In this document: positions 23,999 to 34,775 of the stretch, one piece after another
How the letters are laid out: each line of letters begins with the position of its first letter
Position numbering within the stretch: position 1 is the stretch's first letter
Source of the DNA: a virus
Taxonomy: Duplodnaviria > Caudoviricetes
Direction: 5' to 3' (one strand)
IMG/VR virus record: IMGVR_UViG_3300036770_003979
Coordinates: 1-37,498 of that record
Length of the DNA stretch: 37,498 nucleotides
Translations under genes and position numbers: made by a program
Notes under the pieces: model-generated
Told to the model about the DNA's origin: nothing
The model's input: the letters and a program-made list of their open reading frames with translations, nothing else
The model's database searches: none

Positions 23999-24037
23999 TA
24001 CCGACCCAACATAGGCGTCGGTACTTTCGTATAAGTA
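23999..24037 (-). promoter_or_regulatory. Late-type motif TACTTATA (24030-24037) followed by a 5' leader hairpin (23999-24023) of hsp20
   Basis: UACCGAC-G-CC-UAUGUU-GG-GUCGGUA stem-loop starting 6 nt after the motif. Confidence 0.5.
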
Positions 24038-24045
24038 GTTCTTAG

Positions 24046-24357
24046 TTAGTTATTGTTGTTTTTAGGTTTTCTACCACGACCAGATTTTCCATTTTGATCA
24101 CCTTTTCTAGAGGCACCATTACTTCGTTGATCATCATTAGCATTCTTTTTGGGACGGTTGCTATAGCGTTTCTTTTTAGTCTGAGTAGCTTTGTCAGTGT
24201 TGGTGGGTGCTTCAATATGAACACGAAGGCTATTTATTACCGCGTTCTTGTCTTCTAATGTTTCGGTGAGTGAACTAATTTGTCTACGATTGTAGAACCA
24301 AAACCCAACACCCGAAACAATAGCCGTGATCAAAACTATAAGTAAAGTAAGAGACAT
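24046..24357 (-). CDS. Membrane-anchored protein with basic disordered tail
   Basis: Start moved to MSLTLL (GAGG RBS); TM helix, short coiled coil and K/R/N-rich tail ending GRGRKPK. Confidence 0.7.
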   Translation of the reverse strand: MSLTLLIVLITAIVSGVGFWFYNRRQISSLTETLEDKNAVINSLRVHIEAPTNTDKATQTKKKRYSNRPKKNANDDQRSNGASRKGDQNGKSGRGRKPKNNNN

Positions 24358-24368
24358 AACATTTCCTC

Positions 24369-24917
24369 TCAATATTTGAAAATACAATAAACGTAGTTGT
24401 TATCGTTTACTTTTTTGATGGTTACTTTACCATAAGTATTGGTGAACGTAACAAAAAAGTAAAGCGTTGAATACATAAACGAATCACTAAGGTTTGGTTT
24501 CAGTGTGAAAATCACACCCTTGTTCGCAATAGACATTGCGTTTTCAATAACTGAAGTGACATAATCATGTTGAAATTCACCATACAGGTGTTTATCAAAT
24601 ACACCAGTTATTACGACCCAATCCTTTTTGTCTGGTTCTGAATCGATGTAAGCTTGCAAGGATGTTTCAACAAATAATACATTATCATCTACAAACTTAT
24701 CTTTCAAGGTCTCGACCTTCGTTGGATCCGCGTCAACCGCTATAAAAGAACCAGGTTCAGTTATCGTCGTATATTCCAAATACGTCTCTATGAATTTTCC
24801 GGATTCATTTCCGGATCCGAAATTCAAAACAGAATCTTCGTCGAGTATTCCACAGTTTATAATCTCATCGTAAATAGTTAACTCATCCATAGCATTAGTC
24901 ATTGTTGTAGTATCCAT
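24369..24917 (-). CDS. Class I SAM-methyltransferase-like protein (divergent)
   Basis: SVLNFGSG (motif I variant), FIAVDAD (motif II), DWVVITGVF, KGVIF. Confidence 0.5.
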   Translation of the reverse strand: MDTTTMTNAMDELTIYDEIINCGILDEDSVLNFGSGNESGKFIETYLEYTTITEPGSFIAVDADPTKVETLKDKFVDDNVLFVETSLQAYIDSEPDKKDWVVITGVFDKHLYGEFQHDYVTSVIENAMSIANKGVIFTLKPNLSDSFMYSTLYFFVTFTNTYGKVTIKKVNDNNYVYCIFKY

Positions 24918-26984: not shown

Positions 26985-27450
26985 CTCGTTTCGATTTTAT
27001 TTTTTGAAGTTTGATGTGAGTGATATTACCCTCTTCGGAAATCACAACCTTATGGTCTGCCGAATACAACAGGTCTGTCATCCAATCTAAAAACTTCTCT
27101 ATTTCAGGGTTTATGTTCAATCCCTGTGGTTGTCTTGAACCAAAATCAAAAGGAGGTTTGAAATTATTGAAGAACGGGTTTTGTTTGTCACCCGTGTCAG
27201 ATTTCCCATCTGCTTCATCTTTCAATGAATCAAAAAAAGGATCTTTATCTTCTTCATTGTCTATATCATCGGTTTGTTTGTCTCGAATTTTCTTTACGAT
27301 CTCTTCTACTGTATAACCATCATAGATGGAATTGAACTTATCAAAAAAGTTCTTTGCATCTTGCTTAGTCATCTTTTCATTACGTGTTCCACCCATGTCT
27401 ATTTCAAAATAGTTCAACATGGATTTCAGTTGTCTTTCACGCTTTGTCAT
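26968..27450 (-). CDS. Hypothetical protein
   Basis: 160 aa, overlapping neighbours; DPFF/NPFF/PPF repeats in an acidic linker. Confidence 0.7.
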   Translation of the reverse strand: MTKRERQLKSMLNYFEIDMGGTRNEKMTKQDAKNFFDKFNSIYDGYTVEEIVKKIRDKQTDDIDNEEDKDPFFDSLKDEADGKSDTGDKQNPFFNNFKPPFDFGSRQPQGLNINPEIEKFLDWMTDLLYSADHKVVISEEGNITHIKLQKIKSKRGGKKK

Positions 27451-27700
27451 TTTTGTCTTTCTTCATAAGTGTACTTAGAACTTCTTCATACTCATAGTGT
27501 CCATCTCTAATTCTCATAAGAGAAAATTCTTTTATCTCTTTCTTCAACTTTGAAGATGAACAAACCTCAGCCATTCTAACAACAGATTCTTTTTTTGGAC
27601 ACTTACTTTGAAAGTAGACAGGAAGAAAATCATCCCTCGTAAGAAACCAAAAGCTAAAGAACCCTAATAAGAAAACTACGATAAATTCCACTGAAAACAC
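27437..27700 (-). CDS. Small membrane-anchored hypothetical protein
   Basis: N-terminal hydrophobic helix; GTG start; late-like TATTTATT at 27729-27736 upstream. Confidence 0.6.
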   Translation of the reverse strand: MFSVEFIVVFLLGFFSFWFLTRDDFLPVYFQSKCPKKESVVRMAEVCSSSKLKKEIKEFSLMRIRDGHYEYEEVLSTLMKKDKNDKA

Positions 27701-27744
27701 CTCGGTTATGACGTAAGTTAGTTACAAGAATAAATAGTAGTTGT

Positions 27745-27831
27745 AAAAACAAAACAGGGACTGAAGAATAAATTTGGTCGGTATATGTTGATGAAAAGGT
27801 TCATCACTCTATACAACATTCTTCAGCCCCT
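27745..27831 (-). ncRNA. Structured 3' UTR / extended terminator of the lysin gene (~76 nt rod-like hairpin plus U tract)
   Basis: Outer stem AGGGGCUGAAGAAU (27831-27818) / AUUCUUCAGUCCCU (27769-27756); inner stems GUAUA/UAUAC and UGAUGAA/UUCAUCA; followed by GUUUUGUUUUU. The G-U pair favours the minus strand. Confidence 0.65.
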
Positions 27832-27836
27832 ATTGT

Positions 27837-28337
27837 TTACTCTGTTATCATTACTTGAGCAAGGTTGCGTTCCTCTAACTCAATTCGAAGTCTCTTAGAT
27901 ACCTTTCGCCAGTACTTTTTAGTAGACTTCTTCTTGTGCCCGTCGGGGCCTCCGTTCCACTTCCTTGCCATCAATTCCATGTCTTCTTTTGAAAGTGAAT
28001 CTCTATTCAGGTTTGGGTTGTAAAACTCTTGATAGATCCAAAACATCTCTGCCGACTTCTCAGGATCGTTTCTATCAGCAAGAGTAAACTTTTTATCAAG
28101 TCCTTGAATCTTGCAAATACGATTTACTTCCTTCACCATGATTGGTTTGATTTGGACAATTCCAACCGAACCATCTCTTGATTTTGCGTTTGCGTCACCT
28201 TTTGACTCAACCCAAACGATAGATGAATACAACACGTCTTTTAGGATTTCACCCTTCTTGAAAGGGGTCATTGCAATTACTACAAACGTAGCAACAATGA
28301 GTCCAACGGTTGTAACCCGTTTCCATTTGTTAGTCAT
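27837..28337 (-). CDS. Lysozyme-superfamily peptidoglycan hydrolase (SLT / i-type-like) with N-terminal membrane anchor
   Basis: VES catalytic Glu motif, SVGIVQI, DR.DP.KS..MF and ARKWNGGPDG; hydrophobic VTTVGLIVATFVVIAM after a basic N-terminus. Confidence 0.8.
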   Translation of the reverse strand: MTNKWKRVTTVGLIVATFVVIAMTPFKKGEILKDVLYSSIVWVESKGDANAKSRDGSVGIVQIKPIMVKEVNRICKIQGLDKKFTLADRNDPEKSAEMFWIYQEFYNPNLNRDSLSKEDMELMARKWNGGPDGHKKKSTKKYWRKVSKRLRIELEERNLAQVMITE

Positions 28338-28372
28338 ATCAACTCTCTCTTTTGTGGATAATTTGTTTTCAT
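28334..28372 (-). CDS. Candidate 12-aa leader peptide MKTNYPQKRELI coupled to the lysin
   Basis: ATG at 28372; its TGA (28336-28334) overlaps the lysin ATG as ATGA. It has no strong free RBS and may be chance. Confidence 0.3.
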   Translation of the reverse strand: MKTNYPQKRELI

Positions 28373-28376
28373 TCTT

Positions 28377-28392
28377 TACGTCCGAAGACGTA
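28377..28392 (-). promoter_or_regulatory. C(UUCG)G tetraloop hairpin in the lysin 5' UTR
   Basis: UACGUC-UUCG-GACGUA, a perfect 6-bp stem. Confidence 0.7.
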
Positions 28393-28423
28393 GGTGTATT
28401 ACAACAACATTATACCGACCAAG

Positions 28424-28431
28424 TATAAATA
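28424..28431 (-). promoter_or_regulatory. Putative late promoter TATTTATA for the lysin
   Basis: GATATTTATA context identical to the copies at 4099 and 13037. Confidence 0.6.
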
Positions 28432-28450
28432 TCAGTTGTTTTTGTTATTA

Positions 28451-28484
28451 CAATAATAGGAAATTTTTGGGACAATTCCAAGCG
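28451..28484 (-). promoter_or_regulatory. Host-RNAP-type promoter (TTG-N20-TATTATTG)
   Basis: The 15-mer CGCTTGGAATTGTCC is identical to 30685-30699. Confidence 0.65.
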
Positions 28485-28881: not shown

Positions 28882-29088
28882 GTGTTATTTTACAGTCTGT
28901 CAACATTGTTGATGTTCTGTAAAACTAGCCTCCTTCAGATTCCGTAGGAAGAAAATGGGTGTTTTTATGGACTGTAAATACCCCTGTTTTGACCCCTACC
29001 GACGTCCTAGAGACGTTTTTATTTGACCACCCATACCCAACTATACCTCCACCCATAAAATCTCCGTATAAACGAGTTAAACACCATA

Positions 29089-29152
29089 TTTAAGTCTATG
29101 AAAATAAAGGACTTACGCCGATGACGTAAGTCCTTATAAATCAACTACTTAC
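29089..29152. repeat. Palindromic repeat array, copy 1 (two TAAGT-N15-ACTTA units)
   Basis: Units start at 29091 and 29127; an 11-bp inverted repeat AAGGACTTACG/CGTAAGTCCTT (29107-29135) lies between them; near-identical to 34776-34832. Confidence 0.9.
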
Positions 29153-33445: not shown

Positions 33446-33712
33446 TTATCGATTAGTTAGGTTGCTGAATCCCGATTCGTCAAGCAGGGCGATACCATAC
33501 TTTTCTTTGTGCTTCCTGTCAACATTCAAGGCATGGAAGATTTCATCCTCATGCCAATTAGTGATTTGATTTAGCACCCAATTCAGCTGCTCACTATACT
33601 TCTTGTATAGTTTAGGACTAGTGATCGCCATCTCAGCAGCCATGATCATAAGTGCATCATACTTACGACGCACCTCGATCGCCTCCATATCCCATTCAGA
33701 AAGTTGTTCCAT
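33446..33712 (-). CDS. Hypothetical protein (tandem paralog of 33744-34034)
   Basis: QLSEWD.EAI...RKY...PKLYKKYSE.L.WV......EDE..HA.NV....K.KYGI.LLD is shared with the neighbour. Confidence 0.8.
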   Translation of the reverse strand: MEQLSEWDMEAIEVRRKYDALMIMAAEMAITSPKLYKKYSEQLNWVLNQITNWHEDEIFHALNVDRKHKEKYGIALLDESGFSNLTNR

Positions 33713-33743
33713 TGCGGTGTTCCTTGTGTGTTATTGATTGAGG

Positions 33744-34034
33744 TTAGCTAATCGAACTACCATTGACTACATGATTGAGAACGGTTCCATCTAGCAGGTT
33801 GATACCATACTTGTGCTTATACTCGTTGACAACGTTCCATGCGTGACCAAGTTCATCCTCTCGTGAGAACGATACTTCTTCGTCCACCCATTTCAATATT
33901 TCACTATACTTCTTGTATAGCTTAGGGTCAACCGCTTTCATTTCATTCATCATGTTCGTGAAGATCATATACTTGCGGTTGATCTTGATTGCTTCAATAT
34001 CCCACTCTGAGAGTTGTGGTTGTGATTTTTTCAT
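33744..34034 (-). CDS. Hypothetical protein (tandem paralog of 33446-33712)
   Basis: Same motifs as above; an identical 20-mer occurs at 33591-33610 and 33901-33920. Confidence 0.8.
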   Translation of the reverse strand: MKKSQPQLSEWDIEAIKINRKYMIFTNMMNEMKAVDPKLYKKYSEILKWVDEEVSFSREDELGHAWNVVNEYKHKYGINLLDGTVLNHVVNGSSIS

Positions 34035-34064
34035 TACGGTGTTCCTTGTGTGTTTGTGTGAAAA

Positions 34065-34376
34065 TTAGACGTATTGAACTACACGACGTTGTTTGTGTTG
34101 TTGACGTGAACGAATTGTCTTTCGGTACAAGTTAACATAATGGTCGAACGTATCAATATCCAATTCGTAAATTCTTTTGTTTACTACAAGACAACCACGT
34201 CCGTCGAATGTGTGTGAAGAGTTACGACGGAAGTAACCTGTATTTGGGTTCCAACGATATACAGAACCCGTGACCGCATCAAAGAAAATAGAAGTACCCC
34301 TTGTATTCACACCAAGATAGTGAATGTGAGAATCAAGTTCTTCGATGGAGAACGGGAGATTAGGAAGTGTTTTCAT
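34065..34376 (-). CDS. Hypothetical protein
   Basis: 103 aa preceded by the ACACAAGGA leader. Confidence 0.7.
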   Translation of the reverse strand: MKTLPNLPFSIEELDSHIHYLGVNTRGTSIFFDAVTGSVYRWNPNTGYFRRNSSHTFDGRGCLVVNKRIYELDIDTFDHYVNLYRKTIRSRQQHKQRRVVQYV

Positions 34377-34749: not shown

Positions 34750-34775
34750 GCAAAATCGGTCGGTGTGGATAACTT

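Follow-up and report, generated by a model that had tools for sequence, protein, structure and literature searches.

Control by pairing between the two ends of a message is known for few bacterial mRNAs, and the literature searched yielded no case for a phage cell-wall enzyme. In hok of plasmid R1 (hok/Sok), a 5'-terminal element can pair either with a local partner or with one at the 3' end, and the message encodes a small membrane-damaging peptide. Trimming removes the 3' fbi segment and activates the mRNA (PMC9841398). In hbs of the Firmicute Bacillus subtilis, a short perfect helix linking the 5' UTR to the 3' UTR (14 bp, -19 kcal/mol) lies away from the ribosome site and beside the terminator, with its 3' arm upstream of the latter, and acts on RNase Y/J1 cleavage (PMC5737220). 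The two UTRs of Staphylococcus aureus icaR pair over ~40 nt, directly with the Shine-Dalgarno (SD) sequence, and feed RNase III (PMC3868564). The leader of the T4 gene e, which also encodes a cell-wall enzyme and adjoins a late promoter, forms a purely local hairpin over the SD and AUG on the early RNA (PMC3014915). The comparisons below refer to the available parts of these four sources.

Here we describe the mRNA of a putative lysin from a group of large T4-like phages, in which a 5' arm (X) can pair with a 3' arm (W) located beyond the stop codon. The likeness to tac and fbi of hok noted in the initial annotation is closer than claimed, as X is predicted to have a local partner (Y) as well. 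As in hok, the product is toxic or potentially toxic and the state of the 3' end is predicted to set the fold. Unlike in hok, W is caged in a stem-loop and trimming would expose it, no antitoxin RNA or leader ORF was found here, and the product is a 166-aa SLT enzyme. Membership of the lysin mRNA in the type I toxin-antitoxin systems fails. The helix shares with that of hbs its short, perfect form and its position away from the ribosome site and beside a terminator. It differs in that the loop of the terminal stem encloses W, and the available part of the hbs source describes no local mimic such as Y. As in icaR, two UTRs of one mRNA pair, and cis and trans action are unseparated in both. The helix of 11–12 bp is at least 74 nt from the start codon, and direct SD pairing of the icaR type fails: the partner lies at -82 to -94 from the AUG in 61/61 loci, with the helix 74–94 nt away from it, and the ribosome site is not covered by the helix.

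The window, the whole stretch of 37,498 nucleotides analyzed, spans the entire 37.5-kb virus record, with no sequence beyond it. It encodes baseplate, ClpP-like, UvdE, ThyX and Hsp20 genes, and a T4-type major capsid protein is encoded in four of the five related records searched. The host probably belongs to Bacteroidota or a neighboring phylum, judging from the resemblance of the promoters to the -33/-7 consensus. The SLT protein matches PF01464 with 30.7 bits (cut-off 21.3) and a PHROG endolysin profile with an E-value of 4e-7. Residues 8–22 are hydrophobic, and Glu44, which we take to be the catalytic residue of the family, is invariant in 28/28 homologues. A search of solved structures returned a match to the C-terminal lysozyme motif only (E ~0.001). 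Among the 135 of 182 ORFs screened in the complete relative G001, the SLT gene is the sole member of a peptidoglycan-hydrolase family, and no holin was identified. An endolysin role is plausible. Judged from the SLT domain, the "lysin" of the initial annotation is a putative one. A further ORF (24046–24387, minus strand) encodes a single membrane segment with a probable coiled coil behind it and looks spanin-like by eye.

Table 1. Coordinates of the lysin mRNA element and adjoining features in the window.
Feature	Position	Strand	Evidence
SLT-family lytic transglycosylase, 166 aa, hydrophobic N-terminal segment; putative secreted endolysin	27837..28337	-	PF01464, PHROG, Glu44, hydropathy
-33/-7 promoter of the host type; predicted start close to 28446	28451..28483	-	Bacteroidota consensus, one mismatch in -7 box
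Phage late-promoter-like motif TATTTATA	28424..28431	-	Repeated motif, sense bias
Hairpin predicted on long leader only; holds 3' half of X	28401..28439	-	Folds
X, the 5' arm, 74-85 nt ahead of start codon; core GGUCGGUAU at 28420-28412	28411..28422	-	Core invariant in 61/61 arm loci
Apical leader hairpin, UUCG loop in window; sequence variable, stem kept	28377..28392	-	Alignments; z < -2 in 50/61
Local partner Y, imperfect copy of W ending ~ -19; predicted partner of X before W exists	28353..28368	-	Folds
Codons 1-8, zero synonymous variation	28314..28337	-	0 differences in 1076 pairwise comparisons, clade A; next lowest interval 0.13
Terminal stem (27830-27818 with 27769-27757) caging W; optional inner hairpin (27807-27789)	27757..27830	-	Folds, covariation
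3' arm W (27785-27774) and 5-nt extension (27790-27786), within terminal stem-loop	27774..27790	-	Conservation, enclosing stem
U-rich tract after stem, terminator-like	27745..27756	-	At least 5 U in 8 in 33/61 loci (crude count)
Late motif (27730-27736) and small membrane-protein gene 3' of element	27437..27736	-	Adjoins SLT gene, same strand, in 58/61 arm loci

Three complementary blocks flank the gene: 28411–28422 with 27774–27785, 28405–28409 with 27786–27790 and 28366–28372 with 27791–27797, all as first annotated. The continuous 24-nt strand that they were said to form turned out to be lineage-specific, with the 7-nt extension kept in 2/61 and the 5-bp extension intact in 12/61 loci that carry the arms. 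An outer extension of the helix was rejected: it reaches z ~ -5 in the window, but p ≤ 0.05 in only 3/24 loci, two of which are of the window's own lineage. The predicted energy of X:W is about -17 to -18 kcal/mol, versus -2 to -7 kcal/mol for X:Y. To gauge the chance level, we compared 110 nt upstream with 100 nt downstream of 474 ORFs in the window and two related genomes. Perfect inverted matches of 12 nt or more were found at four ORFs, two of them copies of the SLT gene, leaving 2/472 other genes (12–13 nt). A 12-mer at a single locus is therefore unusual yet not decisive, and it is the conservation of the sequences that settles the reality of the complementarity.

Homologue searches yielded 171 loci, reduced to 127 by merging duplicates and dropping incomplete genes; 121 of these have flanks of 110 nt upstream and 100 nt downstream. 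The two arms occur together in 61 distinct loci and are both missing from 60, with no locus carrying one alone. The arms are found in all 20 loci with at least 70% protein identity, in 41 of 50 at 54–70% and in 0 of 51 below. The data themselves supplied the motif patterns, and an unguided search for the longest helix chose the same arms in 61/61 cases. The arm loci divide into clade A (n = 20, including the window), clade B (n = 37, the largest) and the divergent clade C (n = 4). Two members of the set, one identical to the window (L001) and one 99% identical (L013), are not independent of it. A further arm locus from a bacterial bin (L311), probably a phage contig, was left out of the counts. 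The initial annotation had looked to homologous lysin loci for covariation between the UTRs, and their complementarity is indeed kept in 61/121, the arms always occurring together.

The pattern of substitutions bears on the nature of the element. Across the 61 loci, 549/549 cells of the 9-bp core are paired, 539 as Watson-Crick, 10 as G·U and none as A·C. All core changes are G·U wobble-compatible on the mRNA strand only, and the A-to-G wobble in the 3' arm appears at four or more distinct points of the tree. The 5' core is invariant, and double-sided changes are therefore absent within the core. At the helix edge, L033 is changed on both sides at position -1, and position -2 is U-A versus A-U between clades A and B; mismatches occupy 7/122 edge cells. 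The arms are kept down to 55% protein identity, while the flanks, the spacing (10–81 nt after the stop codon) and the hairpins turn over. Because the changes are mRNA-strand wobbles, recur on the tree and are double-sided at the edge, the pairing would act as RNA and not as a DNA site. Together with the co-occurrence of the arms, these patterns uphold the RNA-level 5'–3' pairing first proposed, and the ends of the lysin mRNA very probably pair under selection.

Eight sister SLT genes of 58–62% identity (L036, L041, L055, L061, L035, L038, L058 and L103) have no arms. They mostly have a short leader and a plain terminator and constitute natural negative controls. The small membrane-protein gene that follows the element (Table 1) is missing from 9/9 no-arm loci checked; in the three arm loci where it could not be scored, the contigs are too short. 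Its protein (27437–27700, minus strand) has an N-terminal membrane segment and no family match in Pfam-type and PHROG profile searches, and is a candidate lysis partner of the SLT enzyme.

A scan of viral contigs with the leader pattern returned at least 120 loci, of which five are known arm loci and the others chance-like; among the matches listed, nothing points to the element at genes other than this one. Rfam 15 gives no match at gathering score in the window, the best in the element region having E ~1. A separate conserved structure was observed in the hsp20 leader (23999–24023, minus strand, on to 23957), where a hairpin with compensatory changes in L097 is followed by an invariant block. 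It happens to contain arm-like words, has no Rfam match and shows no end pairing in 3/3 loci.

The 3' hairpin of the window has a predicted energy of -37.8 kcal/mol (z -7.4), and 0/200 shuffles were as good. W is enclosed in the loop of the stem in 57/61 loci; L033 and L115 have no cage stem. The stem covaries: of 126 cells from 22 distinct stems, 100 are Watson-Crick, 14 are G·U, 3 are A·C and 9 are other combinations, with several pair types per column and G·U in excess of A·C. W is fully open in clade B (unpaired 0.86–1.0), and its opening costs ~6 kcal/mol in clade A. In full-length folds of 25 mRNAs, the probability of the end-to-end helix is 0.00 in 9/10 loci of clade A and 3/4 of clade C, and 0.85–1.00 in 9/11 of clade B. 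Removal of the 3' strand of the stem raises the predicted probability from 0.00 to 0.99–1.00 in 12/12 of the zero loci (nine of clade A and three of clade C). The two mutually exclusive folds proposed for the 3' arm thus hold in nested folding models; ViennaRNA ignores pseudoknots, and helix and stem may coexist. In two small-share RNA runs, one contig of 335 nt covers 27784–28117, and RNA ends and strand are not discernible from it.

From 5' to 3', the leader consists of X, a hairpin of variable sequence, Y, the ribosome site and eight frozen codons. The predicted folds join X to Y in every clade (3–9 expected pairs), and X:Y beats shuffles in 31/37 loci of clade B, 2/20 of clade A and 0/4 of clade C (33/61 overall). 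In clade B, the leader reaches ~27 nt past X and includes a hairpin of its own. Codons 1–8 are nearly identical between clades that are 58% alike in protein, with an invariant CGG codon. Synonymous change in them is absent from clades A and B, but in clade B other intervals are equally frozen, and only clade A is telling. No pairing partner for these codons was found in the folds. Two candidate contacts were rejected: X locking the start codon is present in the fold of the window but averages less than one expected pair, and freed Y pairs with codons 7–8 by at most 0.7 pairs. Two perfect 9-mers (34764–34772 and 28353–28361, minus strand), which we take to be DnaA-box-like, are each located near a host-type promoter. 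A DnaA-box reading of the latter was also rejected, since the 9-mer is not intact in clades B and C, and it is taken as part of Y.

The best-studied Bacteroidota ignore SD sequences. A run of small ORFs at 33446–34376 (minus strand) has near-identical SD-like ribosome-site leaders despite Bacteroidota-type promoters. Elsewhere, strong hairpins are present at 28888–28924 and 29107–29135, in a 400-nt gene-free stretch upstream of an 86-aa ORF. According to the available part of PMC6847099, Bacteroidota promoters follow a -33/-7 consensus with 4–5 nt spacing to the start, which we used for start prediction, and -20 to +20 is a low-structure zone around the start codon.

Read on the gene strand, the late motif corresponds to the T4 late box in reverse complement. 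TATTTAT(A) has six copies in the window (2062–28431), all on the minus strand and 6/6 on the coding strand. Upstream of ORFs, sense copies outnumber antisense copies by 24 to 3 in G001 and by 15 to 2 in G002. Its distribution in the sequences indicates that the motif is a real feature of the phage group; no sigma factor was found among the 135 ORFs screened in G001. In these T4-like phages, the sense bias applies 20–50 nt ahead of genes.

Both promoters assigned to the gene in the initial annotation are candidates, one as a host-type match and the other as a copy of the group-wide late motif. Their arrangement is less general, as the late motif is within 14 nt of the arm in only 18/61 loci. 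In 35/37 loci of clade B, it precedes the host -7 box, lying about 47–50 nt upstream. In the window's clade, the predicted cost of opening the ribosome site is 4.7 kcal/mol on the long leader versus 6.7 kcal/mol on the short one. In the long leader of clade A, X is predicted to go into a distinct hairpin, and the ribosome zone is predicted to be more open than on the short leader. The suggested timer of the T4 gene e type, in which early transcripts are silenced by structure, is not supported: early long leaders are predicted to fold no more closed, the opposite of what gene e does, and few loci have the motif beside the arm.

The complementarity, the co-occurrence of the arms, the wobble-type variation and the position of W inside a covarying stem are established directly; local pairing of X with Y and the switch from terminal stem to end-to-end helix are folding predictions. 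We tentatively favor a gated strand-displacement switch, in which uncaging of W leads to activation and end protection, and rank it above a stability clamp and a shut-off of the hok type. X would first fold onto its weak partner Y at the edge of the ribosome landing zone, with W caged in the loop of the terminal stem. Once W is set free, either while the RNA is nascent or through slow trimming from the 3' side, the two ends of the mRNA would join, leaving the landing zone open and both ends protected. The closed form would be the stable, translated one, and the enzyme would be made mainly from finished, matured transcripts. Gating by trimming would not be universal, because the cage is weak in clade B, as its helix probabilities indicate, and absent from L033 and L115.

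The predicted effect of the helix on the ribosome zone changes sign with the interval chosen. With X bound, opening of -20 to +13 becomes cheaper by more than 0.5 kcal/mol in 48/52 short-leader loci (16/18 of clade A, 30/30 of clade B and 2/4 of clade C), a gain that is partly built in because an interval from -20 includes the end of Y. For -18 to +12, the median change is -0.7 to +0.4 kcal/mol. For -14 to +3, the cost rises in five and falls in five loci of clade A, and rises in 14 and falls in five of clade B. The role of the helix as a "safety lock", suggested by the initial annotation, is unproven in these models. A bolder version of activation by uncaging, which we consider rather improbable, is a self-contained, RNA-only lysis timer. 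The mRNA would be born closed at its 5' end, its key shut inside the loop of the terminator, and slow trimming from the 3' side would yield a stable, translated closed loop with no antitoxin and no protein regulator. This would invert the logic of hok, with trimming exposing an activator here and removing an inhibitor there.

The absence of a consistent change in the narrow ribosome intervals is what a stability clamp would predict, a possibility that we place second. Here, as in hbs, the helix would hide the 5' end or a cleavage site in the leader and block 3' decay with no direct effect on ribosomes. X follows the late motif by 3 nt in 18/61 loci and is so probably at the 5' end, the helix is remote from the AUG, and the 14-bp hbs helix of similar energy provides a precedent (PMC5737220, available part). 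Against this, a clamp leaves the local mimic Y and the caging of W unexplained, and in clade B there are the extra ~27 nt and hairpin of the leader.

The rises in cost seen in clade B would fit a shut-off of the hok or icaR type, in which W pulls X off Y, and freed Y covers the ribosome site. The finished mRNA would be silent, with nascent or W-less RNA being translated. This is also possible, in third place. The order of the parts matches tac, ucb and fbi in the available part of PMC9841398. In clade B, pairing of Y with -14 to +9 rises from 0.1 to 3.6 expected pairs, and -14 to +3 is costlier in 14/30 loci, or 29/30 with a shorter coding stretch. However, Y pairing in clade A stays flat, at 1.6 expected pairs before and 1.5 after, opening of the wider footprint becomes cheaper rather than costlier, and no antitoxin RNA was found, nor, in a sigma-70 scan, an opposite-strand promoter over the gene.

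Control of termination is unlikely. The helix would form as W leaves the polymerase and either block the terminal stem, causing read-through, or itself act as the terminator stem with the gene as its loop. W ends 3–7 nt before the 3' strand of the stem, at least five U occur in the eight nt after the helix in 54/61 loci, both cage-less loci have a plain U tract, and the helix forms in folds of RNA cut off behind W. Yet those U residues double as the 3' strand of the stem, L032, L034 and L037 lack a U tract, and in most loci the following gene carries a late motif of its own. Less likely still is action in trans, with the 3' stem-loop outliving decay as a small RNA that binds the 5' arm of new transcripts, a feedback growing during infection. 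The loop-exposed W of clade B resembles an antisense seed and the 3' hairpin is very stable in clade A, but no promoter or processing site was identified, cage-less loci would yield no stable fragment, and sequence cannot by itself separate cis from trans.

Inverted DNA sites, whether an operator pair or the ends of a recombining or mobile unit, are very improbable. An invariant 5' core is expected of a protein site, but the changes within the core fit G·U pairing on the mRNA strand alone, the motif is not genome-wide (10 arm copies and four strays in five records versus seven control matches), and the gene is never inverted in 58/58 informative loci. Chance complementarity inherited by descent, for which the 12–13-nt matches at 2/472 other genes could be cited, is negligible given the 61/0/60 co-occurrence, the fully paired core and the retention of the arms while their surroundings turn over.

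The element is real and conserved, and appears to be an undescribed variant of the rare pairing between 5' and 3' UTRs. No description was found in the open-access literature searched; RNA-motif supplements could contain either half. It is also unmentioned in the available part of a 2026 preprint on the mining of non-coding elements. A secreted muralytic enzyme would reach the wall without a holin, and its timing must therefore be set at expression. The element is a small and portable candidate, with a leader and a trailer of ~90 nt each, and its 61 natural variants suggest disruptive and compensatory mutants. It bears on how a 3' end could govern a message, given that translation usually runs coupled to transcription.
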